Shown: positions 1-9,982 of the stretch, one piece after another
Numbering within the stretch: the stretch's first letter is position 1
Layout of the letters: every line of letters begins with the position of its first letter
From: a virus
Virus genome (UHGV): UHGV-0102185
DNA length: 10,032 nt
Strand: one strand, 5' to 3'
Notes under the pieces: model-generated
The model's input: only the letters and a program-made list of their open reading frames with translations
What the model was told of the DNA's origin: nothing
Databases searched by the model: none
Made by a program: the position numbers and the translations under genes

Positions 1-1
1 T

Positions 2-46
2 GACTTCTCCACACCGACTAAAGTGACCGCAGAGCCGGGAGCGTAA
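2..46 (+). CDS. N: 3' end of an upstream gene, probably major capsid protein gpN (partial; start lies outside the window)
   Basis: Frame 2 is open from the window edge to TAA at 44-46 (peptide ...DFSTPTKVTAEPGA*), ending 3 nt before the M start codon with GGGAGCG just upstream. Identification as N rests only on P2 gene order; the peptide is too short to recognise. Confidence 0.35.
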   Translation, partial: DFSTPTKVTAEPGA

Positions 47-49
47 CCG

Positions 50-793
50 ATGACGAGTCCCGCACAGCGCCACATGATGCGGGTCTCGGCAGCGATGACC
101 GCGCAGCGGGAAGCCGCCCCGCTGCGACATGCAACTGTCTATGAGCAGATGCTGGTCAAGCTGGCCGCAGACCAGCGCACACTGAAAGCGATTTATTCAA
201 AAGAGCTGAAGGCCGCGAAAAAACGCGAACTGCTGCCGTTCTGGTTGCCGTGGGTGAACGGCGTGCTGGAGCAGGGCAAAGGTGCACAGGATGACATTCT
301 GATGACGGTCATGCTGTGGCGTCTGGATACCGGCGATATTGCCGGTGCGCTGGAGATTGCCCGTTATGCCCTGAAGTACGGTCTGACCATGCCGGGTAAA
401 CACCGCCGCACCCCGCCGTACATGTTCACCGAGGAGGTGGCGCTCGCGGCCATGCGCGCCCACGCTGCCGGTGAGTCTGTGGATACCCGCCTGCTGACGG
501 AGACCCTTGAACTGACCGCCACGGCAGACATGCCTGATGAAGTGCGCGCAAAGCTGCACAAAATCACCGGTCTGTTTCTGCGTGACGGTGGTGATGCCGC
601 CGGTGCGCTGGCTCACCTGCAACGTGCGACACAGCTCGACTGTCAGGCAGGCGTCAAAAAAGAGATTGAACGACTGGAGCGGGAGCTGAAACCGAAGCCG
701 GAGCCGCAGCCCAAAGCGGCCACCCGCGCCCCGCGTAAGACCCGGAGCGTGACACCGGCAAAACGTGGACGCCCGAAAAAGAAAGCCAGTTAA
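50..793 (+). CDS. M: Terminase endonuclease (small) subunit, P2 gpM-like
   Basis: 247-aa ORF (MTSPAQRHMMRVSAAMTAQREAAP...) with length and sequence matching my recollection of P2 gpM; lysine/arginine/proline-rich C-terminal tail; sits directly upstream of an L-X-Y-K block as in P2. Confidence 0.88.
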   Translation: MTSPAQRHMMRVSAAMTAQREAAPLRHATVYEQMLVKLAADQRTLKAIYSKELKAAKKRELLPFWLPWVNGVLEQGKGAQDDILMTVMLWRLDTGDIAGALEIARYALKYGLTMPGKHRRTPPYMFTEEVALAAMRAHAAGESVDTRLLTETLELTATADMPDEVRAKLHKITGLFLRDGGDAAGALAHLQRATQLDCQAGVKKEIERLERELKPKPEPQPKAATRAPRKTRSVTPAKRGRPKKKAS

Positions 794-892
794 CAACCGA
801 ATGCGCCCCGCGCCAGGGCGGCACGCCGGTCAGTGAGGGTGAATCACCTGACACTGCACCGGCGTCCACCGCCCGACTTTTCAGAGGTAGTC

Positions 893-1402
893 ATGATGAC
901 GCTGATTATTCCGCGAAAGGAGGCTCCCGTGTCCGGTGAGGGTACGGTGGTCATCCCGCAACCGGCAGGCGACGAGCCGGTGATTAAAAACACGTTCTTT
1001 TTTCCCGATATCGACCCGAAGCGCGTCCGGGAACGTATGCGCCTTGAGCAGACCGTCGCCCCCGCCCGTCTGCGTGAGGCCATCAAGTCAGGCATGGCGG
1101 AGACGAATGCGGAGCTGTACGAGTACCGCGAACAGAAAATTGCCGCCGGTTTTACGCGTCTGGCGGAAGTCCCGGCGGACGACATCGACGGTGAAAGCAT
1201 CAAAGTTTTTTACTACGAGCGCGCCGTGTGTGCGATGGCGACCGCGTCGCTTTATGAGCGTTATCGCGGCGTGGATGCCAGTGCGAAAGGCGACAAGAAG
1301 GCTGACAGCATTGACAGCACCATTGATGAGCTGTGGCGGGATATGCGCTGGGCGGTGGCGCGCATCCAGGGCAAGCCGCGCTGCATCGTGAGTCAAATCT
1401 GA
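893..1402 (+). CDS. L: Head completion/stabilisation protein, P2 gpL-like
   Basis: ORF track opens at GTG 833, but ATG 893 (MMTLIIPRKEAPVSGEG...) is preceded by AGAGGTAG at 883-890 and gives 169 aa, the length I recall for P2 gpL. Start could also be ATG 896. Confidence 0.82.
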   Translation: MMTLIIPRKEAPVSGEGTVVIPQPAGDEPVIKNTFFFPDIDPKRVRERMRLEQTVAPARLREAIKSGMAETNAELYEYREQKIAAGFTRLAEVPADDIDGESIKVFYYERAVCAMATASLYERYRGVDASAKGDKKADSIDSTIDELWRDMRWAVARIQGKPRCIVSQI

Positions 1403-1605
1403 TGAAGACCTTTGCGCTACAGGGCGACACGCTCGACGCCATCTGTGTCCGGTATTACGGGCGCACTGAGGGCGTGGTCGAGGCCGTGCTCGCCGCAAAT
1501 CCGGGACTGGCTGAACTGGGTGCGGTGCTGCCGCACGGCACCGCCGTCGAACTGCCCGACGTTCAGACCGCGCCCGTGGCTGAAACTGTCAATCTGTGGG
1601 AGTAA
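1402..1605 (+). CDS. X: Small tail protein, P2 gpX-like
   Basis: ATG 1402 overlaps the L stop (TGATGA); gives 67 aa (MKTFALQGDTLDAICVRYYGRTEGVVEAVLAANPGLAELGAVLPHGTAVELPDV...), matching P2 gpX in size and position. The longer track ORF from 1333 is an in-frame upstream extension inside L. Confidence 0.78.
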   Translation: MKTFALQGDTLDAICVRYYGRTEGVVEAVLAANPGLAELGAVLPHGTAVELPDVQTAPVAETVNLWE

Positions 1606-1608
1606 CGC

Positions 1609-1890
1609 ATGACAGCAGAAGAAAAAAGCGTCCTGTCGCTTTTCATGATTGGGGTGCTGATTGTTGTCGGCAAGGTGCTTGCCGGTGGTGAACCCATCAC
1701 CCCGCGTCTGTTTATCGGGCGCATGTTGCTCGGTGGTTTTGTCTCGATGGTTGCCGGTGTTGTTCTGGTGCAGTTTCCTGACCTGTCACTGCCTGCGGTG
1801 TGCGGTATCGGCTCCATGCTGGGTATCGCCGGTTATCAGGTGATTGAGATTGCCATTCAGCGCCGTTTTAAGGGCAGGGGGAAACAGTAA
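1609..1890 (+). CDS. Y: Holin, P2 gpY-like
   Basis: 93 aa with hydrophobic segments (LSLFMIGVLIVVGKVLAGG, LLGGFVSMVAGVVLVQF, AVCGIGSMLGIAGYQVI) and a charged C-terminal tail (RRFKGRGKQ); sits immediately upstream of the endolysin as in P2. Confidence 0.85.
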   Translation: MTAEEKSVLSLFMIGVLIVVGKVLAGGEPITPRLFIGRMLLGGFVSMVAGVVLVQFPDLSLPAVCGIGSMLGIAGYQVIEIAIQRRFKGRGKQ

Positions 1891-2387
1891 TGCCGGTAAT
1901 TAACACGCATCAGAATATCGCGGCCTTTCTCGACATGCTGGCCGTGTCCGAAGGGACGGCGAATCATCCGCTGACGAAAAACCGGGGCTATGACGTGATA
2001 GTCACCGGACTGGACGGGAAGCCGGAAATTTTCACTGACTACAGTGACCACCCGTTCGCGCATGGCCGACCGGCGAAGGTGTTTAACCGTCGCGGTGAAA
2101 AATCCACGGCCTCCGGTCGCTATCAGCAGCTTTACCTGTTCTGGCCGCACTACCGCAAACAGCTTGCCCTGCCGGATTTCAGTCCGTTGTCACAGGACAG
2201 GCTCGCCATTCAGTTGATCCGCGAACGCGGTGCACTGGATGACATCCGGGCGGGACGCATTGAGCGCGCCATTTCACGCTGTCGCAATATCTGGGCGTCC
2301 CTGCCGGGTGCCGGTTACGGTCAGCGTGAGCATTCACTGGAAAAACTGGTCACCGTCTGGCGTACCGCTGGCGGCGTACCGGCTTAA
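1890..2387 (+). CDS. K: Endolysin (lambda R-type lytic transglycosylase fold), P2 gpK-like
   Basis: 165 aa; recognisable similarity to lambda R (AFLDMLAVSEGT, GYDVIV, FTDYSDHP, SGRYQ, RCRNIWASLPGAGYGQREH). Start ATG overlaps the Y stop (TAATG). Confidence 0.9.
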   Translation: MPVINTHQNIAAFLDMLAVSEGTANHPLTKNRGYDVIVTGLDGKPEIFTDYSDHPFAHGRPAKVFNRRGEKSTASGRYQQLYLFWPHYRKQLALPDFSPLSQDRLAIQLIRERGALDDIRAGRIERAISRCRNIWASLPGAGYGQREHSLEKLVTVWRTAGGVPA

Positions 2388-2401
2388 ACGGAGTAAACAC
2401 C

Positions 2402-2827
2402 ATGAAGAAATTATCCCTTTCACTGATGCTGAACGTGTCGCTGGCGCTGATGCTGGCACTGTCCCTGATTTACCCGCAGAGCGTGGCCGTCAGTTTTGTC
2501 GCTGCCTGGGCGATTCTGGCGACGGTTATCTGTGTGGTTGCCGGTGGTGTCGGCGTGTATGCCACAGAGTATGTACTGGAACGCTACGGGCGGGAGCTGC
2601 CGCCGGAATCGCTGGCCGTGAAGATTGTCACGGCGCTGTTTTTGCAGCCGGTGCCGTGGCGCAGACGGGCGGCGGCTCTGGTGGTGATGGTGGCGACGTT
2701 TATCTCGCTGGTTGCCGCCGGGTGGATTTTTACCGCGCTGATTTATCTCGTGGCATCGGTGTTCTTCCGGCTGATACGTACGGCCTGCCGTCAGCGTTTT
2801 GAGGGGCGGGAACCATGTCAAGGCTGA
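2402..2827 (+). CDS. lysA: Lysis accessory membrane protein, P2 LysA-like
   Basis: 141 aa, strongly hydrophobic with several predicted membrane segments; GGAG at 2390-2393 upstream; sits between endolysin and spanin genes as in P2. Confidence 0.75.
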   Translation: MKKLSLSLMLNVSLALMLALSLIYPQSVAVSFVAAWAILATVICVVAGGVGVYATEYVLERYGRELPPESLAVKIVTALFLQPVPWRRRAAALVVMVATFISLVAAGWIFTALIYLVASVFFRLIRTACRQRFEGREPCQG

Positions 2828-3240
2828 TGATTGTGCTGGTCGTGTTGTTATCGCTGGCGGTGGCGGGGCTGTTTCTGGTGAAGCATGAAAACGCCAGACT
2901 GCGCGACTCGCTGGACAGGGCGAACAGCGTCGCCAGCGGGCAGCAGACGACCATCACCATGCTGAAAAATCAGCTTCATGTTGCGCTCACCAGGGCAGAC
3001 AAAAACGAGCTGGCGCAGGTGGCACTGCGTCAGGAACTGGAGAACGCCGCGAAGCGTGAAGCACAGCGCGAGAAAACCATCACGAGGTTACTGAATGAAA
3101 ACGAAGATTTTCGCCGCTGGTACGGTGCTGACCTGCCTGATGCTGTGCGCCGGTTGCACCAGCGCCCCGCCTGCACCGACGCCAGTGATTGTCCACAACG
3201 CCTGCCCGAAAGTGAGTCTTTGCCCGATGCCGGGCAGTGA
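2815..3240 (+). CDS. lysB: Inner-membrane spanin (Rz-like), P2 LysB-like
   Basis: 141 aa with an N-terminal membrane anchor (LMIVLVVLLSLAVAGLFLV) followed by a charged, probably coiled-coil periplasmic region; contains the nested lysC reading frame. Confidence 0.8.
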   Translation: MSRLMIVLVVLLSLAVAGLFLVKHENARLRDSLDRANSVASGQQTTITMLKNQLHVALTRADKNELAQVALRQELENAAKREAQREKTITRLLNENEDFRRWYGADLPDAVRRLHQRPACTDASDCPQRLPESESLPDAGQ

Positions 3241-3385
3241 CCCGGAGACGAACGGCGATTTAAGTGCCGATATCCGGCAGCTTGAGAACGCGCTGGCACG
3301 CTGTGCCAGCCAGGTAAAAATGATTAAACACTGTCAGGACGAAAACGATGCTCAAACCCGACAGCCTGCGCAGGGCGCTGACTGA
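3095..3385 (+). CDS. lysC: Outer-membrane lipoprotein spanin (Rz1-like), P2 LysC-like, nested out of frame in lysB
   Basis: 96 aa with a signal peptide and lipobox (MKTKIFAAGTVLTCLMLCAGC), a proline-rich stretch and several cysteines. Starts inside lysB in another frame and runs past the lysB stop into the R start region. Confidence 0.75.
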   Translation: MKTKIFAAGTVLTCLMLCAGCTSAPPAPTPVIVHNACPKVSLCPMPGSDPETNGDLSADIRQLENALARCASQVKMIKHCQDENDAQTRQPAQGAD

Positions 3386-3815
3386 TGCCGTCACGGTGCT
3401 GAAAACTAACCCCGATATGCTTCGGATATTCGTGGATAACGGGAGTATTGCCTCCACACTGGCGACGTCGCTGTCATTCGAAAAGCGTTACACGCTCAAT
3501 GTCATTGTGACCGACTTTACCGGTGATTTTGACCTGCTCATCGTGCCGGTGCTGGCGTGGCTGCGGGAAAATCAGCCCGACATCATGACCACCGACGCAG
3601 GCCAGAAAAAGGGCTTCACGTTTTATGCAGACATCAACAATGACAGCAGCTTTGATATCAGCATCAGCCTGATGCTGACCGAGCGCACGCTGGTCAGTGA
3701 GGTGGACGGCGCACTGCATGTGAAGAATATCCCGGAACCCCCGCCGCCGGAGCCGGTCACCCGCCCGATGGAGCTTTATATCAATGGCGAACTGGTGAGC
3801 AAGTGGGATGAATGA
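3348..3815 (+). CDS. R: Tail completion protein, P2 gpR-like
   Basis: 155 aa (MLKPDSLRRALTDAVTVLKTNPDMLRIFVDNGSIAS...), size and position matching P2 gpR; stop overlaps the S start (ATGAATGA). Confidence 0.85.
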   Translation: MLKPDSLRRALTDAVTVLKTNPDMLRIFVDNGSIASTLATSLSFEKRYTLNVIVTDFTGDFDLLIVPVLAWLRENQPDIMTTDAGQKKGFTFYADINNDSSFDISISLMLTERTLVSEVDGALHVKNIPEPPPPEPVTRPMELYINGELVSKWDE

Positions 3816-4257
3816 GTTTAAGCGTTTTGAAGACCGGCTGACCGGACTGATTGAGTCGCTGTCACCGTCAGGGCGTCGGCGACTGGCGGTAGATATTGCG
3901 AAGAAACTGCGCCAGCGCCAGCAGCAGCGAATTAAATTACAAAAAGGCCCGGATGGTACGCCGTATGTACCGAGAAAAAACCAACCAGTGCGAAATAAGA
4001 AAGGCCGGATAAAGCGGGAAATGTTTGTGAAATTACGCACTAACCGGTTTATGAAAGCAACAGCTAGCGAGAGTGCGGCGGTGGTGGAGTTTACTGGTAA
4101 GGTTGAGTGTATTGCGAGAGTACATCAATTTGGGTTGGCTGATAAGCCTAGTTACAACAGTAAGGCTGTGGTTTATCCTGTTCGTATACTTATGGGAATC
4201 TCAGAGCGTGATACGAAATTTGTTGAAGAAGTTATTATTCGCTACCTATCTCATTAG
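3808..4257 (+). CDS. S: Tail completion protein, P2 gpS-like, with an AT-richer and probably divergent 3' portion
   Basis: 149 aa (MNEFKRFEDRLTGLIESLSPSGRRRL...VHQFGL...); the N-terminal third is GC-rich like the backbone, while from about 3950 onward composition and codon choice become AT-rich. Confidence 0.85.
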   Translation: MNEFKRFEDRLTGLIESLSPSGRRRLAVDIAKKLRQRQQQRIKLQKGPDGTPYVPRKNQPVRNKKGRIKREMFVKLRTNRFMKATASESAAVVEFTGKVECIARVHQFGLADKPSYNSKAVVYPVRILMGISERDTKFVEEVIIRYLSH

Positions 4258-4302
4258 GGACGATGAAAATATAGTTTCATCAGCTATATTCTAGTATATA
4301 AA

Positions 4303-4337
4303 ATACTAAGGCTACACTAGCCGTGTAGCCTTAGTAT
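4303..4337. terminator. Perfect hairpin (15-bp stem, 5-nt loop) between convergent genes; candidate bidirectional intrinsic terminator
   Basis: ATACTAAGGCTACAC (4303-4317), loop TAGCC, GTGTAGCCTTAGTAT (4323-4337) are exact reverse complements. Lies between the S stop (4257) and the minus-strand gene's stop (4358), in AT-rich flanks, but without a clean poly-U run on either side. Confidence 0.5.
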
Positions 4338-4357
4338 ATGTTTGGGATATTATATAA

Positions 4358-5602
4358 CTAAATCCAGCGAAGGTAGAATAGTAAGTAAGGATCTCTGATG
4401 TCTAATACATCGCTTTCTTGATCCCACTCGATAATACTGCTATTTGCAGCATCGTTGGCAATAGCAGTTGAGTGCTGACATGCACTGGTTATACTAGAAC
4501 CGCTTGGGCTATCGCCATGACATAACGAGGTCACTCGAGATACTAAGTCAGAATAACGAAATGTCAGCGTCGGAGGATTAGAAGCAATGGCTTTTAATAA
4601 AAAGACATAAACATCGCCTTGCCAGCCATCTTTTGATATATATGATTTTCTATCAGAACCACGCACTTTAGGTCCTTCGCGCATTTTATCCACAATCGTG
4701 CTGTAATCTGCTGACTGAAGTGTACGTTTGCACACTCTTTGCAATGTGGCAATATCTTTTTGATATTTTATTGAAGTATCAGAAGTCTCTCTGACATTCA
4801 TTTCAAAACAAGAGTTTAAGCATAAATATTGCATTAGTTGTGGTGAGCCTGCGGACTCTTTTACTAACTCACTTATAACTTCATCAGAGGCATCTATATT
4901 GAGTAGTTTGAATCCTTTCTGAGCAATAATTTTTAAGGTTGATTCATCCCAATAATCAAAATCAATATTAAATATCCGACCTCGTAAGTCAGAGTTACCC
5001 CGAAGAACATCATCAGAATGATATGGCACTGATGCACAAATAAATTTGCAGCCATTAGCTATGGCATCTTTTATTTGTCGTGATAGTTCGGCTTGAGCTT
5101 CTTTAGCAATATAGTGAAAATCATCGATAAAGATAACATAATCTGTGTTTGCGATTTCTCGCTTCATTAGTTGAAAGAGATCTATCGCAAATGATTCTGA
5201 GGTTTGATCTGCTGTACTATAACCAGCGGATGCAGACCCTTTAAGACTACCTTTTGCTAAAATTACACCAGCTTGGGCAGATAATTCTCCTGTACTTGAA
5301 AATGATGAGGTGCCAGTTTTACTTTGAACTTGGGTTACTGGTACACCAAGTATGTCGAAAACGCGCTTCCATAAATCATTAGCAGATTGAACCCCTGCTC
5401 CAGTTACTTCGATTAGCCTCTGGGTTCCAAGTACTTTCTTAACAAAGACAGTTTTTCCTGATTTTGATGGGCCAGAGATAGAAATCAGCATGGTGCCCAT
5501 CTCAAGTGTATCGATTAACTGTTGCTGTTTAGATACTAGGTGATCCTCAACCAGTGTGTGGTTGGGATAACCGCCTGGGATAAAAACCTCTGTCGCCTTC
5601 AT
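4358..5602 (-). CDS. Compact STAND/AAA_16-like P-loop NTPase of unknown function; candidate phage-encoded defence or exclusion protein
   Basis: 414-aa minus-strand ORF in the AT-rich block. Walker A GPSKSGKT (nt 5450-5473), Walker B VIFIDDFH of the hhhhDD type (DD at nt 5120-5125), a possible sensor-1-like KFICASV, and a GSP motif (ESAGSPQLMQYL) about 90 aa further on. A Ser/Thr/Gly-rich insert (about aa 94-135) sits between Walker A and B. No canonical Shine-Dalgarno before the ATG. Confidence 0.7.
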   Translation of the reverse strand: MKATEVFIPGGYPNHTLVEDHLVSKQQQLIDTLEMGTMLISISGPSKSGKTVFVKKVLGTQRLIEVTGAGVQSANDLWKRVFDILGVPVTQVQSKTGTSSFSSTGELSAQAGVILAKGSLKGSASAGYSTADQTSESFAIDLFQLMKREIANTDYVIFIDDFHYIAKEAQAELSRQIKDAIANGCKFICASVPYHSDDVLRGNSDLRGRIFNIDFDYWDESTLKIIAQKGFKLLNIDASDEVISELVKESAGSPQLMQYLCLNSCFEMNVRETSDTSIKYQKDIATLQRVCKRTLQSADYSTIVDKMREGPKVRGSDRKSYISKDGWQGDVYVFLLKAIASNPPTLTFRYSDLVSRVTSLCHGDSPSGSSITSACQHSTAIANDAANSSIIEWDQESDVLDIRDPYLLFYLRWI

Positions 5603-5643
5603 ATATCAACGCCAACATTATTAATGGTATGCCAATTTTACGT

Positions 5644-5661
5644 TGTAAGAGGATCAATACA
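5644..5661 (+). promoter_or_regulatory. TGT-N12-ACA element upstream of V; possible Ogr-type late-activator site (speculative)
   Basis: TGT (5644-5646), 12 nt, ACA (5659-5661), centred about 56 nt upstream of the V start codon. P2 late promoters carry such a partial dyad centred near -55 of the transcription start, so the spacing is not ideal and a chance match is plausible. Confidence 0.2.
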
Positions 5662-5708
5662 AGTTCCATTTATTGCCTGTGAGTGCTGAAAAATTCAATA
5701 TTTGAAAA

Positions 5709-6344
5709 ATGAATATAAATCACTCATTACAAGAGCTTGCGCGTGCACTGCGCAACATGATCCGCACCGGTATTATCGTCGAAACCGACCTTAACGCCGG
5801 TCGCTGCCGTGTGCAGACCGGCGGCATGTGCACCGACTGGCTTCAGTGGCTGACCCATCGTGCCGGACGTTCGCGCACATGGTGGGCACCTTCCGTGGGG
5901 GAACAGGTGCTGATTCTGGCTGTGGGCGGTGAACTCGACACGGCGTTCGTTCTGCCGGGGATTTATTCCGGCGATAACCCCGCGCCGTCTGCGTCGGCGG
6001 ATGCCCTGCATATCCGTTTCCCTGACGGGGCGGTGATTGAGTATGAACCTGAAACCAGTGCACTGACGGTAAGCGGAATTAAAACGGCCAGCGTGACGGC
6101 TTCTGATTCTGTTACTGCCACGGTGCCGGTGGTCATGGTGAAAGCATCAACCCGCGTCACCCTGGACACACCGGAGGTGGTCTGCACCAACAGGCTGATT
6201 ACCGGCACGCTGGAAGTGCAGAAGGGCGGGACGATGCGCGGCAACATTGAACACACCGGCGGTGAACTCTCATCAAACGGTAAGGTACTGCATACCCATA
6301 AACACCCCGGCGACAGTGGCGGCACAACAGGGGGACCTCTATGA
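5709..6344 (+). CDS. V: Baseplate spike/assembly protein, P2 gpV-like
   Basis: 211 aa (…LQELARALRNMIRTGIIVETDLNAGRCRVQTGGMCTDWLQWLTHRAGRSRTWWAPSVGEQV…), matching P2 gpV in length and sequence as I recall it; the first few codons are AT-rich. Confidence 0.9.
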   Translation: MNINHSLQELARALRNMIRTGIIVETDLNAGRCRVQTGGMCTDWLQWLTHRAGRSRTWWAPSVGEQVLILAVGGELDTAFVLPGIYSGDNPAPSASADALHIRFPDGAVIEYEPETSALTVSGIKTASVTASDSVTATVPVVMVKASTRVTLDTPEVVCTNRLITGTLEVQKGGTMRGNIEHTGGELSSNGKVLHTHKHPGDSGGTTGGPL

Positions 6345-6688
6345 CTGCGCGTTATCTCGGAATGAATCGCAGTGATGGCCTGACGGTCACTGACCTTGAG
6401 CATATCAGCCAGAGTATCGGCGATATCCTGCGCACACCGGTCGGCTCACGGGTGATGCGTCGTGATTACGGCTCGTTGCTGGCGTCAATGATTGACCAGC
6501 CGCAGACCCCGGCGCTTGAGTTGCAGATTAAGGTCGCCTGTTACATGGCGGTGCTGAAATGGGAACCCCGCGTCACCCTGTCATCCGTCACCACGGCGCG
6601 CAGTTTTGACGGGCGAATGACAGTTACGTTAACCGGCCAGCACAACGACACCGGCCAGCCACTTTCGTTAACCATCCCTGTGAGTTGA
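6341..6688 (+). CDS. W: Baseplate wedge protein (T4 gp25-like fold), P2 gpW-like
   Basis: 115 aa (MTARYLGMNRSDGLTVTDLEHISQSIGDILRTPVGSRVMRRDYGS...); start overlaps the V stop (ATGA); correct size and position for gpW. Confidence 0.9.
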   Translation: MTARYLGMNRSDGLTVTDLEHISQSIGDILRTPVGSRVMRRDYGSLLASMIDQPQTPALELQIKVACYMAVLKWEPRVTLSSVTTARSFDGRMTVTLTGQHNDTGQPLSLTIPVS

Positions 6689-6692
6689 AACC

Positions 6693-7601
6693 ATGCCGAT
6701 TATCGACCTGAACCAGCTACCCGCACCGGATGTGGTCGAGGAGCTGGACTTTGAAACCATTCTTGCCGAACGCAAGGCGACACTGATTTCCCTTTACCCG
6801 GAAGACCAGCAGGAGGCGGTCGCCCGTACCCTGACGCTGGAATCCGAGCCTCTCGTCAAACTGCTGGAGGAAAATGCTTATCGTGAGCTTATCTGGCGTC
6901 AGCGTGTGAATGAGGCCGCACGGGCGGTGATGCTGGCCTGTGCTGCCGGTAATGACCTTGATGTGATTGGTGCCAATTACAACACCACACGCCTGATTAT
7001 CACCCCGGCAGATGATTCAACCATCCCGCCGACACCGGCCGTGATGGAATCTGACACCGATTATCGTCTGCGTATTCAGCAGGCGTTTGAAGGTTTAAGC
7101 GTCGCCGGGTCGGTGGGTGCCTATCAGTATCATGGCCGCAGTGCCGACGGGCGTGTCGCGGATATCTCTGTCACCAGTCCGTCTCCGGCCTGCGTCACCA
7201 TCTCTGTGCTGTCACGTGAAAATAACGGTGTCGCATCCGAAGACCTGCTGGCGGTGGTGCGTAACGCCCTTAATGGCGAGGACGTCAGGCCGGTGGCCGA
7301 CCGCGTGACCGTGCAGTCTGCCGCCATCGTTGAATACCAGATAAACGCCACGCTTTACCTTTACCCTGGTCCCGAAAGCGAACCCATACGCGCTGCCGCC
7401 GTGAAAAAACTGGAAGCGTACATCACGGCACAGCACCGGCTGGGGCGCGACATCCGTCTGTCTGCCATTTATGCCGCTTTGCATGTGGAAGGCGTGCAGC
7501 GTGTCGAACTGGCTGCACCACTGGCCGACATCGTGCTCAACAATACGCAGGCGTCTTTCTGTACCGAATACAGCGTCGTGACCGGAGGCTCGGATGAGTG
7601 A
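6693..7601 (+). CDS. J: Baseplate assembly protein, P2 gpJ-like
   Basis: 302 aa (MPIIDLNQLPAPDVVEELDFETILAERKATLISLYPEDQQEAVARTLTLESEP...); size and synteny match gpJ. Confidence 0.9.
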   Translation: MPIIDLNQLPAPDVVEELDFETILAERKATLISLYPEDQQEAVARTLTLESEPLVKLLEENAYRELIWRQRVNEAARAVMLACAAGNDLDVIGANYNTTRLIITPADDSTIPPTPAVMESDTDYRLRIQQAFEGLSVAGSVGAYQYHGRSADGRVADISVTSPSPACVTISVLSRENNGVASEDLLAVVRNALNGEDVRPVADRVTVQSAAIVEYQINATLYLYPGPESEPIRAAAVKKLEAYITAQHRLGRDIRLSAIYAALHVEGVQRVELAAPLADIVLNNTQASFCTEYSVVTGGSDE

Positions 7602-8124
7602 TTCGCGACTGCTGCCGACCGGCTCATCACCGCTTGAAGTCGCTGCCGCGAAAGCCTGTGCGGAAATTGAAAAAACGCCGGTCAGTATTCGTGAGTTGTG
7701 GAACCCGGACACCTGCCCGGCAAATCTGCTGCCGTGGCTGGCGTGGGCGTTTTCGGTCGACAGGTGGGATGAAAAGTGGCCGGAAGCGACAAAACGCGCC
7801 GTTATCCGCGATGCCTATTTCATCCACTGTCATAAAGGCACTATAGGCGCAATCCGACGCGTGGTGGAGCCGCTCGGCTATCTCATCAACGTGACGGAGT
7901 GGTGGGAAAACAGTGACCCGCCCGGCACCTTCCGGCTTGATATTGGTGTACTGGAAAGCGGTATCACAGAGGCAATGTATCAGGAAATGGAACGGCTGAT
8001 TGCTGATGCCAAACCTGCAAGCCGCCACCTTATCGGCCTGAACATTACCCGGGACATTCCCGGCTACCTGTTCGCCGGTGGTGTGGCTTACGACGGCGAT
8101 GTAATTACGGTTTACCCCGGATAA
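7594..8124 (+). CDS. I: Baseplate protein, P2 gpI-like
   Basis: 176 aa (MSDSRLLPTGSSPLEVAAAKACAEIEKTPVSIRELWNPDTCPANLLPWLAWAFSVDRWDE...); overlaps the J 3' end by 8 nt; size and synteny match gpI. Confidence 0.9.
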   Translation: MSDSRLLPTGSSPLEVAAAKACAEIEKTPVSIRELWNPDTCPANLLPWLAWAFSVDRWDEKWPEATKRAVIRDAYFIHCHKGTIGAIRRVVEPLGYLINVTEWWENSDPPGTFRLDIGVLESGITEAMYQEMERLIADAKPASRHLIGLNITRDIPGYLFAGGVAYDGDVITVYPG

Positions 8125-8134
8125 GTGAGGTATA

Positions 8135-9982
8135 ATGAGCACAAAATTCAAAACCGTTATCACCACTGCCGGTGCAGCAAAGCTGGCAGCGGCAACCGCG
8201 CCGGGAGGGCGGAAGGTCAACATTACCACGATGGCCGTCGGGGATGGCGGTGGTAAATTGCCTGTCCCGGATGCCGGACAGACCGGACTTATCCATGAAG
8301 TCTGGCGACATGCGCTGAACAAAATCAGCCAGGACAAACGAAACAGTAATTATATTATCGCAGAGCTGGTTATTCCGCCGGAGGTGGGCGGTTTCTGGAT
8401 GCGTGAGCTTGGCCTGTACGATGATGCGGGAACATTAATTGCCGTGGCGAACATGGCCGAAAGTTATAAGCCTGCCCTTGCCGAAGGCTCAGGGCGTTCG
8501 CAGACCTGCCGCATGGTCATCATCGTCAGCAGTGTGGCCTCAGTGGCGCTGACCATTGACACCACAACGGTGATGGCGACGCAGGATTACGTTGATGACA
8601 AAATTGCAGAGCACGAACAGTCACGACGTCACCCGGACGCCTCGCTGACCGCAAAAGGTTTTACTCAGTTAAGCAGTGCGACCAACAGCACGTCTGAAAC
8701 ACTGGCCGCAACGCCGAAAGCGGTAAAGGCCGCTTATGATCTTGCTAACGGGAAATATACCGCGCAGGATGCCACCACAGCGCGAAAAGGCCTTGTCCAG
8801 CTCAGTAGCGCCACCAACAGTGATTCTGAAACGCAGGCCGCAACACCAAAAGCGGTGAAGTCTGCCTATGACAATGCTGAAAAACGTCTTCAGAAAGATC
8901 AGAACGGTGCGGATATTCCTGATAAAGGACGCTTCCTGAGTAACATTAATGTTTACAGCAAAGGTGAAGTGGATAAGAAAAAGGGAATGCGAAAGTATTC
9001 GTTTGCAGCCCCTGCAAATGTCGTTGCCGGGAAGTGGTATCCCGTTATCTTTCGCCGTGCTGCCAGCCTTTCAGGAGAAATGGCATCCCGCGTCGTTATT
9101 TCCACTGGTTGTTATAACAGCGATTATGTAATGAATAACTGCGAGTTTAATGGCATGGTTATGCCCGGAGGCTGGACTGATCGTGGTTCATATGCGGCAG
9201 GTTATTTCTGGACGTATCAGACTAATGAGCGTTCAATCCATTCCATTGTTACAAGCCTGAAAGATGATGATGTATGTAGTGTTTTTTATGTTGAAGCCAG
9301 AGCTTTCCCTGTGCAAATTCTTGCAGAGGAAGGGCTAACGGTTATTGTTCCGACAGAGGATTATGTCGTCGGTCAAACGACATATAAGTGGGGGGCAACT
9401 AATCCTGCTACAGAAAGCACGAACGCACAGGCTATTCTGGATTTTAAAAATGGGCGCGGTTATTACTGCTCACATCCATTTATTTCCAGCCTTTCGGGAA
9501 ATGCTGCAACAGCAACGAAGTTAGCGAACGCAAGAAATATTAATGGTGTCAGATTTGATGGCTCTGCTGATATAAATATTAATACACTGGTATCCAGAAA
9601 CCGTGTTACTGCATTAGGTGGGAGCGTAAAGGGGACACCAGGTATTCAGATGTATGAGGCATACAACAATGGCTACCCAACAGCCTATGGTAATGTGCTT
9701 CATCTCACTGGCGTAACCGCAGTAGGAGAGGGTGAGTTACTTATTGGCTGGAGTGGAACCAGCGGTGCTCATGCTCCGGCATATATTCGCTCCCGACGAG
9801 ATACCACAGATGCTAACTGGTCTGGATGGGCGCAACTATATACAACTGCTCATAAACCCTCAGCGGGAGATGTTGGTGCATACACCAAAGCTGAATCAGA
9901 TTCACGTTATGTGAGAGACATGCGGCTGGGCGGTGCATCTACATATAAACCAGCAAATAATGGTACTACATGGACGCGGTGA
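8135..9982 (+). CDS. H: Tail fibre protein, P2 gpH-like, with a divergent C-terminal region
   Basis: 615 aa; N-terminus (MSTKFKTVITTAGAAKLAAATAPGGRKVNITTMAVGDGGG...) typical of P2-family fibres; GTGAGG at 8125-8130 upstream; two fibre-repeat copies; composition becomes AT-richer from about 8900. Confidence 0.9.
   Translation: MSTKFKTVITTAGAAKLAAATAPGGRKVNITTMAVGDGGGKLPVPDAGQTGLIHEVWRHALNKISQDKRNSNYIIAELVIPPEVGGFWMRELGLYDDAGTLIAVANMAESYKPALAEGSGRSQTCRMVIIVSSVASVALTIDTTTVMATQDYVDDKIAEHEQSRRHPDASLTAKGFTQLSSATNSTSETLAATPKAVKAAYDLANGKYTAQDATTARKGLVQLSSATNSDSETQAATPKAVKSAYDNAEKRLQKDQNGADIPDKGRFLSNINVYSKGEVDKKKGMRKYSFAAPANVVAGKWYPVIFRRAASLSGEMASRVVISTGCYNSDYVMNNCEFNGMVMPGGWTDRGSYAAGYFWTYQTNERSIHSIVTSLKDDDVCSVFYVEARAFPVQILAEEGLTVIVPTEDYVVGQTTYKWGATNPATESTNAQAILDFKNGRGYYCSHPFISSLSGNAATATKLANARNINGVRFDGSADININTLVSRNRVTALGGSVKGTPGIQMYEAYNNGYPTAYGNVLHLTGVTAVGEGELLIGWSGTSGAHAPAYIRSRRDTTDANWSGWAQLYTTAHKPSAGDVGAYTKAESDSRYVRDMRLGGASTYKPANNGTTWTR
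8654..8740 (+). repeat. Intragenic tail-fibre repeat, copy 1 (KGFTQLSSATNSTSETLAATPKAVKAAYD)
   Basis: 29-aa motif repeated 44 aa further on with roughly 80% amino-acid identity; resembles the conserved phage tail-fibre repeat seen in P2 H and lambdoid side fibres. Confidence 0.7.
8786..8872 (+). repeat. Intragenic tail-fibre repeat, copy 2 (KGLVQLSSATNSDSETQAATPKAVKSAYD)
   Basis: Second copy of the same motif inside H, in frame. Confidence 0.7.

Follow-up and report, generated by a model that had tools for sequence, protein, structure and literature searches.

A single-gene NTPase in the S–V slot of a P2-like prophage: a candidate immune switch at the border of AAA+ and STAND ATPases

Introduction

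This study concerns a 10,032-nucleotide stretch of DNA, the UHGV virus genome UHGV-0102185 (one strand, 5' to 3'; hereafter the window, to which all coordinates refer unless the label of another locus precedes them), and a single gene carried within it. The window covers the late region of a P2-like prophage, with the terminase gene M, followed by L, X, the holin and endolysin genes, LysA/B/C, R, S, V, W, J, I and H. Located between S and V on the minus strand is a gene with an ATG start (4358–5602) that appears in the list of open reading frames (ORFs) and encodes a 414-amino-acid nucleoside triphosphatase (NTPase), annotated merely as 'ATP-binding protein' (WP_032151672.1). We refer to this gene and its product as the cargo gene and the cargo protein. 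A preliminary description, made from the DNA sequence alone, had proposed that the cargo protein is a compact STAND-like NTPase and a candidate for an undescribed anti-phage system.

Results

The cargo gene lies in an exchanged AT-rich block

Inspection of the ORF list confirmed the 414-amino-acid minus-strand ORF and revealed that every other long ORF on this strand runs antisense to a P2 late gene. The GC content is 0.394 in the cargo gene and 0.389 over 3925–5725, compared with 0.593 in the left flank (1–3900) and 0.577 in the right flank (5730–8700). Composition and homology breakpoints together delimit an AT-rich mosaic block (3925–5725; GC 0.39), which takes the place of the P2 orf30 region together with the 3' half of S. 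On the left side, the nucleotide match to P2 breaks off at 3888, that to L-413C at 3925 and that to R18C at 4134, all within S (3808–4257, plus strand; assigned by ORF and homology), the mosaic border gene that encodes the tail completion protein gpS. On the right side, homology to these references picks up again at 5726–5730, just within V (5709–6344, plus strand; ORF and homology), which encodes the baseplate spike gpV and opens the next late operon. Identity to P2 gpS is 72% over the N-terminal half of the protein and only 41% over the C-terminal half, and towards the 3' end of S the GC content is down to 0.36. The breakpoints within S and the unequal halves of gpS indicate that the exchanged block takes in the 3' half of this essential tail gene. 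The AT-rich block that the preliminary description had placed between S and V is therefore real, with the correction that its left edge falls inside S and not after it.

A terminator scan combined with RNA folding identified an intrinsic terminator hairpin (4303–4337, minus strand) 20 nt past the cargo stop codon. The hairpin has a perfect 15-bp stem followed by a U-run and a folding free energy of −24.2 kcal/mol (z −5.58), and none of 200 shuffled sequences was equally stable. Given its placement between the convergent S and cargo genes, it could possibly act in both directions. The GC contrast, the orientation opposite to the late genes and the hairpin support the view, put forward from the sequence beforehand, that the cargo is a horizontally acquired single gene with its own terminator.

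Diverged alleles of the cargo gene reuse the same slot

The orf30 region is one of three regions of P2-like phages that commonly hold horizontally acquired genes (PMC3091744). The S–V interval contains orf30 (786 nt, minus strand) in P2 and an unrelated plus-strand ORF in R18C, and it is empty in L-413C. Orf30 was considered as a relative of the cargo protein and rejected (best BLASTP E value of 27, and no nucleotide homology in the interval). Thus, the cargo gene shares with P2 orf30 the slot, the minus strand and the character of AT-rich acquired DNA, whereas the two sequences are unrelated, and orf30 is without any Pfam or PADLOC match.

A search of the joined flanks against complete Escherichia coli genomes matched 1664 records. 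In an evenly spread sample of 60 of these, the slot was mostly empty (span 3449), about one quarter had an orf30-type insert (span 4323), and the cargo gene was present in the top match only (span 4831). Among 5426 complete E. coli genomes, 12 carry the cargo gene, in all cases on the chromosome, 99.6–100% identical and annotated as 'ATP-binding protein'; the exact protein sequence also occurs in 280 contigs of a large sequence collection. Other P2-like prophages have alleles in the same slot and orientation, including a 57%-identical allele in Serratia and 75%-identical alleles in Enterobacter and metagenomic sequences. Comparison with P2 orf30 and with other S–V intervals, which the preliminary description had recommended, thus showed that the slot is reused by diverged alleles of the cargo gene and that these bear no similarity to Orf30. 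A close homologue was not found in sequenced phage records, in which the sole match, 31% identical, belonged to a Clostridioides phage.

A decayed P2-like remnant in Enterobacter-type contigs (L086 and L090, 3517–6737) retains an intact 415-amino-acid ATPase gene in a setting where V is split into pieces of 162, 55 and 42 amino acids, J is cut to 128 amino acids and the head genes are absent. The persistence of an intact ATPase gene in such a remnant fits selection acting on the cargo once the prophage had died.

The cargo protein combines an invariant core with a hypervariable loop

Conservation was assessed in an alignment of 32 homologues from several phyla, which contains about 100 invariant positions, and motif positions were fixed by script. 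The Walker A motif, G44-PSKSGK-T51 (5450–5473; like all protein features given here, on the minus strand), is invariant in this alignment, as is the DD-type Walker B motif, YVIFIDDFH (residues 155–163; 5114–5140), of which D160, D161, F162 and H163 are invariant in all branches. A GSPQ sequence at residues 252–255 occupies the GxP or sensor-2 position, with glutamine in place of arginine. All three motifs had been read correctly from the translation, as had the lack of an N-terminal effector domain, given that Walker A starts at residue 44. A further motif, DLRGR (residues 205–209; 4976–4990), directly precedes strand b5 in the strand map of the AlphaFold model and ends in the invariant R209. 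In total, the invariant positions include the whole P-loop, F158, DDFHY, R209 and GSPQLM and, in the C-terminal part, EGPKxRGSDR, WQGDVY, PPxLTFRY, PSGSS, EWD and DIRDPYxLFYLRW. The residues K50, D160, D161, F162, H163, R209 and S253 remain invariant down to 23% identity, and G44, G49 and K50 are invariant in the distant branches as well.

Model confidence and column identity also delimit a hypervariable, disordered loop rich in Ser, Thr, Gly and Ala (residues 88–138; 5189–5341), whose mean column identity is 0.32 versus 0.66 elsewhere. Among close relatives, the loop is 39–59% identical versus 71–87% over the rest of the protein; an A116-K117 pair in its middle is nonetheless invariant. Residues 93–136, with an AlphaFold predicted local distance difference test (pLDDT) score below 50, are the sole disordered stretch of the model and form the tip of a β-hairpin (91–95/134–138) between helix a2 and the Walker B strand b3. 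These data bear out the unusual insert that the preliminary description had noted between Walker A and Walker B. At the matching place, AAA+ proteins of the initiator clade have their initiator-specific motif. That the fastest-evolving region of the protein is a surface loop fits a recognition element under an arms race.

A widespread family has one substantial match in the defence libraries

A word-indexed homologue search returned 1707 homologues at E ≤ 1e-3, and the best 120 of the 1707 were all full-length (about 414–420 amino acids). Among them, proteins from Aeromonas, Serratia, Acidithiobacillus, Chloroflexi, Desulfuromonas and Verrucomicrobia are 55–60% identical to the cargo protein. 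When 1.84 billion cluster representatives were searched with a profile, 2205 clusters matched at E ≤ 1e-3, including 521 at E ≤ 1e-30; the best 150 of the 2205 were all either stand-alone proteins of 400–450 amino acids or fragments. A genome scan provided 62 loci from Proteobacteria, Myxococcota, Acidobacteria, Chloroflexi, Bacteroidetes, Verrucomicrobia, Cyanobacteria and Firmicutes. The family is patchily distributed over more than eight phyla at 35–60% identity.

The defence libraries used, none of them newer than 2023, provided one substantial match, the PADLOC model PDC-S59 (PDLC05049; E 2.8e-31, 107 bits), which like the cargo gene represents a single-gene NTPase candidate (about 428 positions) and which aligned over residues 37–296 of the cargo protein and positions 37–292 of the 428 in the profile. 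The PDC models represent 145 untested candidates chosen by their embedding in BREX, DISARM and type I restriction-modification (RM) systems (Payne et al. 2024, 10.1101/2024.01.29.577857). PDC-S59 is defined by such embedding, whereas the cargo gene lies between phage tail genes. All tested subfamilies of the superfamily scored 46–108 bits with the PDC-S59 profile, and none of them equals the seed group; in some branches, the match reaches the C-terminal domain (residues 3–415 in L104; to position 402 in L085). As judged from these scores, the subfamilies form one superfamily, of which the cargo protein appears to be a divergent branch. Besides PDC-S59, PADLOC-DB 2.0.0 gave merely a marginal match to mad8 and no match to a validated system, NCBIfam gave nothing meaningful for the cargo protein, and PHROGs gave only a family of unknown function. 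The profile search suggested in the preliminary description was thus productive for PADLOC, and in Pfam no model reached its cut-off.

Distant relatives have a fused TIR domain or a nuclease gene beside them

A tblastn search of plasmids revealed as a homologue a Curtobacterium 'TIR domain-containing protein', which aligned with the cargo family over the whole module (hhalign probability of 98.2%) and has a TIR_2 domain C-terminal to that module (residues 355–471; Pfam E 2e-12). The aligned motifs of the TIR-fused module are EVFxxxxxPTHTFV, GPSGIGKS, VIDDFH, PDLTNR, GSxxxAQLLCMNAC and DPMLTFYLR. On the Curtobacterium plasmid (L084, 5878–7350), the gene is next to a caspase-family gene and another TIR gene. 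The TIR-fused family of actinobacteria comprises 1874 proteins at E ≤ 1e-5, nearly all of about 490 amino acids with PF13676 (for example, P0270–P0389), and their TIR part matches the PADLOC model PDC-S66. Within this branch, nSTAND_NTPase5 scored 19.9 bits versus a cut-off of 34, and precomputed PF25199 assignments exist for a few members.

In Firmicutes, a homologue of about 400 amino acids (31% identical) is followed after 3–20 nt by a conserved restriction endonuclease (REase) gene of about 260 codons, whose product matches DpnII-MboI in Pfam (5e-35) and the Argonaute-associated REase in PADLOC (~1e-15). This pair was found in Clostridium plasmids, the Clostridioides phage and Paenibacillus (L085, 5980–7979; L102, 3968–5967; L103, 3992–6023). 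The cassette itself looks like an undescribed candidate defence system.

Homologues paired with the nuclease have a hypervariable loop that is about 28 amino acids shorter, and those fused to a TIR domain have none; in this small sample, loop length thus varies with whether an effector is present. A constant NTPase module that occurs with a TIR domain, with a nuclease or with no effector follows the pattern of immune sensors and does not fit replication or transposition ATPases.

The modelled fold combines AAA+ and STAND features

An AlphaFold2 run with the family alignment produced a model (pLDDT 79.3; predicted template modelling score 0.68) in which an AAA+-type α/β core is followed by a helical lid, a conserved basic linker and a winged helix. 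The lid (residues ~220–296; 4715–4945), which includes the invariant G252-S-P-Q-L-M-Q, was assigned from the model, conservation and matches to AAA+ lid folds. The C-terminal winged helix (residues ~329–414; 4361–4618) has the order helix (331–339), strand (347–349), helix (350–360), helix (368–386), strand (391–394), strand (399–402) and a terminal helix, and the conserved motifs PPxLTFRY, PSGSS, EWD and DIRDPYxLFYLRW fall within it. A winged helix had been among the possibilities raised for the last ~110 amino acids, and the last ~85 of them indeed model as one.

The best Foldseek matches in the Protein Data Bank (PDB) were Cdc6 (1fnn), 2qen, ORC/Cdc6, RFC and RuvB. Closest in structure are archaeal ATPases of the PF01637 type and Orc1/Cdc6, with MuB and TnsC next, and not NLRs. 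A sequence search of the PDB found no related entry, and a BFVD fold search returned generic clamp loaders alone. The archaeal Walker-type ATPases of PF01637, PaBY2304 (PDB 2qen) and SSO1545 (2fna), have a strong structural likeness to the cargo protein, which differs from them by its 45-amino-acid disordered loop and by a PF01637 score below cut-off. PF01637 ATPases are said to have been placed by Leipe and co-workers in 2004 in the 'MNS' clade of STAND proteins.

Two features characteristic of STAND proteins were identified, a Walker B motif of the hhhhDD type (VIFIDD, residues 156–161) and a core–lid–winged helix layout with a GxP motif (G252-S-P254), although the layout also occurs in AAA+ proteins of the Cdc6/Orc1 type and so does not discriminate for STAND. 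STAND proteins have a sensor-1 arginine at the end of strand β4. According to the alignment and the model strand map, β4 and the residues that follow it (KFICASVPYH, residues 186–195) contain no arginine; S191 and H195 are conserved near this place. No further Pfam domain that would provide sensor repeats or an effector was found, the 414-amino-acid chain ending with the winged helix, and none of the curated STAND models (NACHT, NB-ARC and nSTAND) matched the cargo protein at E ≤ 1. Classical AAA+ features are absent as well, namely the catalytic glutamate (the motif is DD, not DE) and the sensor-2 arginine (GSPQ). R209, directly preceding the strand at 210–214, resembles the LRDRF motif of RuvB and the SRC motif of RFC, and its region gave weak matches to RuvB models of NCBIfam. 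By this resemblance, R209 is a candidate for a trans-acting, box VII-like arginine finger.

The Pfam models closest to the cargo protein fell below their gathering cut-offs: AAA (PF00004) scored 18.4 bits versus 21.2, AAA_22 24.2 versus 27 and AAA_16 19.7 versus 32.6. ATPase_2 (PF01637) scored 18.3 bits versus 33.2 over residues 34–259 (profile positions 16–224 of 225), and the cargo protein thus looks like a PF01637 protein in its modelled structure without qualifying as one at the sequence level. The alternative of an AAA_14 plus DUF4143 ATPase, raised in the preliminary description, was discarded: AAA_14 scored 15.2 bits versus 27 (E 0.022) over the P-loop only, and DUF4143 was absent from the matches. 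Given these mixed features, with DD and GxP kept and the sensor-1 arginine, catalytic glutamate and sensor-2 arginine missing, we therefore call the cargo protein an Orc/Cdc6- and PF01637-like NTP switch at the AAA+/STAND border. The label 'STAND-like' is defensible as a description, on account of the Walker B type, the GxP motif and the layout, and not as membership, for which a sensor-1 arginine, repeats, an effector and a match to a curated STAND model are all missing.

Homologues occur in varied genomic neighbourhoods

All-against-all clustering of 403 neighbours from 60 loci revealed no conserved partner gene beyond local synteny in Myxococcota. A census of neighbouring genes, made as plain counts, included a minority of scattered matches to type I and type II RM systems, AbiTii, PDC-S13, HEPN proteins, integrases and resolvases. 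At one locus (L022, 6822–9977), the protein behind the matches to the PADLOC models mad3 and mad8 is an ABC ATPase resembling UvrA (Pfam UvrA_DNA-bind, E 1e-39), an example of how certain PADLOC models also recognize paralogues with housekeeping functions.

Several homologues are lone genes in small islands, as in Aeromonas, where a variable island adjoins parC/parE, and in a marine gammaproteobacterium, where the island lies between ubiD and a TonB receptor gene. In two lineages, the homologue is directly downstream of ribonucleotide reductase (RNR) genes of differing types, nrdAB-like in one case and a 712-amino-acid RNR plus TSCPD in the other (L092/L094, 653–6263; L097, 1828–6263), an adjacency that may reflect chance use of a hotspot or a connection with deoxynucleotide metabolism. 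One of the RNR-adjacent islands also contains a SIR2-nSTAND5 gene, an MNT/HepT pair and Tn7-like genes. Homologues are also found on plasmids, including one with 24% identity that adjoins type I RM genes, and in Massilia a TIR-like gene is just upstream of the homologue.

In a marine gammaproteobacterial lineage that is widespread (its protein occurs in 523 blocks of the collection), a 300-amino-acid protein is encoded 94 nt upstream of the homologue on the same strand (L002, 7004–7906). This protein has an R-x4-H motif, a weak match to HEPN_RiboL-PSP (E 1e-3) and a Cys-rich C-terminus, by which it could be a local effector partner; it had no relatives among the neighbours of other homologues. 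The contexts of the insert-less relatives and of a 630-amino-acid relative were too short or uninformative.

The upstream DNA contains a probable late-activator site

The cargo ATG (5602) and the V ATG (5709) are separated by 106 bp. Within this interval, a TGT-N12-ACA dyad (5644–5661, plus strand), recognized by its pattern and spacing relative to P2 and to a prophage with a 75%-identical allele (L016), has its centre 56.5 nt ahead of the V start codon. The dyad of P2 is imperfect and lies 57 nt from the start of V, and the L016 prophage has a perfect dyad at a similar distance; the dyad block is kept in three enterobacterial alleles. P2 late promoters are Ogr-dependent, with dyad symmetry upstream. 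By pattern and position, the dyad at 5644–5661 is probably the late-activator (Ogr-type) site of the V promoter, PV. The best candidate promoter of the cargo gene found by eye (TTGTAT-16 nt-TAAAAT, minus strand), and the sole −35/−10-like pair there, overlaps this dyad, an arrangement that hints at mutually exclusive expression of PV and the cargo gene. Expression from the lysogen, which the preliminary description had suggested, thus found no support in the upstream DNA, most of which is occupied by the putative late-activator site.

Other features of the prophages

Outside the S–V slot, the 3' part of the tail-fibre gene H (8700–9982) has a GC content of 0.47 versus about 0.58 upstream, which suggests that the receptor-binding end of the fibre has been exchanged separately. 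The prophage of E. coli 258E (L001) has a DUF4238 gene in the A/portal (old/tin) hotspot and three small uncharacterized genes in the Z/fun slot, and its gene D contains an internal stop, so this prophage copy may be defective (coordinates of these other L001 features: 9390–10319, 26702–28396 and 33796–34959).

Discussion

Analysis of the S–V interval leads us to favour, with moderate confidence, the proposal that this locus is an acquired single-gene module whose product would serve the prophage as an immune NTP switch directed at other phages or mobile DNA. The anti-phage role suggested in the preliminary description is rendered plausible by the PDC-S59 match, by reuse of the slot by diverged alleles and by the TIR-fused and nuclease-paired homologues. 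The data show the anatomy, conservation and fold class of the protein, the reuse of its slot and the existence of effector-bearing homologues; the defence function, its trigger, oligomerization, the effector step and expression in the lysogen are inferences. The slot lies between the late operon that ends in S and the promoter of the V operon, and in the scheme that we envisage, the cargo product would rest as an inactive monomer. A component of the invader would be sensed, probably via the hypervariable loop, the winged helix or both, and ATP-dependent oligomerization would follow, with R209 completing the active site of the neighbouring protomer. The oligomer might then act directly, by coating or clamping DNA as Orc/Cdc6, MuB and TnsC do, or by burning ATP. 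We propose a direct output, whether DNA binding and polymerization via the winged helix and loop or ATP consumption, because the protein is a stand-alone form without an effector, and we do so with low confidence. A more specific version, a minimal self-contained immune NTPase in which the loop senses the invader and ATP-bound protomers polymerize on DNA via the winged helix to block replication or packaging, would amount to defence without an enzymatic effector; it is speculative and, in our estimate, unlikely in this exact form.

Several observations weigh against an immune role. The PDC-S59 match is confined to the ATPase part, which makes the cargo protein a relative rather than a clear member of that candidate family. 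The census of neighbouring genes (about 290 ORFs, up to three positions on either side, at about 55 non-prophage loci) recovered mostly housekeeping functions and is weak evidence for defence. An apparent association with MADS was rejected because the mad3/mad2 matches among the neighbours were to a UvrA-like protein, as was one with PD-T4-6, where the match was to a generic kinase. The structural neighbours of the cargo protein, Orc/Cdc6, MuB, TnsC, RFC and RuvB, are ATPases that act in DNA transactions and not in immunity. With no recognizable effector in the stand-alone form, the killing or blocking step is left to guesswork, and a σ70 promoter scan upstream of the cargo gene found no consensus site. 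Finally, the literature contained no mention of PDC-S59 or WP_032151672, and no experimental test of the cargo protein or PDC-S59 was found in it, Brenes & Laub 2025 lying outside the scope of that search; neither the accession nor the peptide motifs occur in the supplements of Payne 2024, DefensePredictor 2026 or the 2026 P2/P4 preprint.

The pairing of the module with an effector in the distant branches, always as a fused TIR domain or an adjacent REase, raises the question of whether the cargo protein is an incomplete sensor or switch that needs an effector encoded elsewhere, or an orphan left after loss of a partner. The weakly HEPN-like gene upstream of the homologue in the marine lineage and the TIR-like gene upstream of that in Massilia point in the same direction. 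However, every one of the best 150 cluster representatives is either a fragment or a protein of about 400–450 amino acids that stands alone, none of the 60 loci revealed a conserved partner, the gene is alone in the P2 slot in three genera, and full-length conservation across phyla argues for the single protein as the working unit; we consider an incomplete switch unlikely, if worth keeping in mind. We give a slightly lower chance to a DNA-transaction ATPase of a mobile element, that is, a loader, initiator or target selector like Orc/Cdc6, DnaC/IstB, MuB or TnsC that might serve the replication, partition or movement of the cargo or of plasmids. In its favour, Orc1/Cdc6, MuB and TnsC are the best structural neighbours after 2qen, one homologue is named 'Bacterial dnaA protein', a Clostridium homologue has a weak TniB match in Pfam, and homologues are found on plasmids. 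Yet the gene has no conserved neighbour of the transposase, integrase, helicase or replication type, and its site among late tail genes is distant from the P2 replication module. The cargo protein also differs from Orc1/Cdc6 and MuB/TnsC in having DD instead of the catalytic DE and GSPQ without a sensor-2 arginine, and in that its homologues bear immune effectors, TIR fusion and REase pairing being foreign to loaders.

A lysogenic-conversion gene that alters host physiology without relation to phages, for example as an ATP-dependent winged-helix regulator, is an improbable reading, as no target operon or neighbour is conserved and the family is patchy, horizontally spread and located on plasmids and prophages, with homologues that have TIR or REase effectors. 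The rarity of the gene in E. coli and the failure to detect a promoter would suit a decaying or functionless passenger ORF, but the gene is intact in 12 of 12 genomes, the protein is full-length at 55–60% identity across phyla with dozens of invariant residues, and an intact copy is kept in a decayed prophage, which makes a mere passenger scarcely credible.

Among established defence proteins, the Avs and other NLR-like STAND proteins, including TIR-STAND proteins, resemble the cargo protein in the P-loop switch, the DD Walker B motif, the GxP lid and the winged helix; the existence of a TIR-fused sister branch and a location in prophages and hotspots are also held in common. The PADLOC Avs models did not match, and the cargo protein has neither the N-terminal effector nor the C-terminal TPR-like sensor of Avs. 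The exclusion genes old, tin and Z/fun of P2 set a precedent for exclusion genes in P2 accessory slots, whereas their proteins are unrelated to the cargo protein and their slots are different ones.

The cargo protein is not categorically new, and 'undescribed' proved too strong a term: it is a divergent representative of a superfamily that PADLOC-DB already lists as the untested candidate PDC-S59, and its slot is the long-known orf30 variable locus of P2. What this analysis adds is the reuse of the orf30 slot across genera by diverged alleles, the fold assignment, the TIR-fused and REase-paired sister branches, which are the most informative of these results, and, in a small sample, the apparent relation between loop length and effector.

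Should the cargo gene provide no protection, it would be an ordinary uncharacterized prophage accessory gene. If protection holds true, orf30 (S–V) would be the third classic variable slot of P2 to join the phage-borne defence hotspots, for which surveys now centre on the old/tin and Z/fun slots. Protection would also provide the first function for a Pfam-unclassified family of more than 2000 sequence clusters, and the cargo protein would then be an unusually small NLR-like/AAA+ switch and a handy system for the study of NTPase sensing without a dedicated effector.

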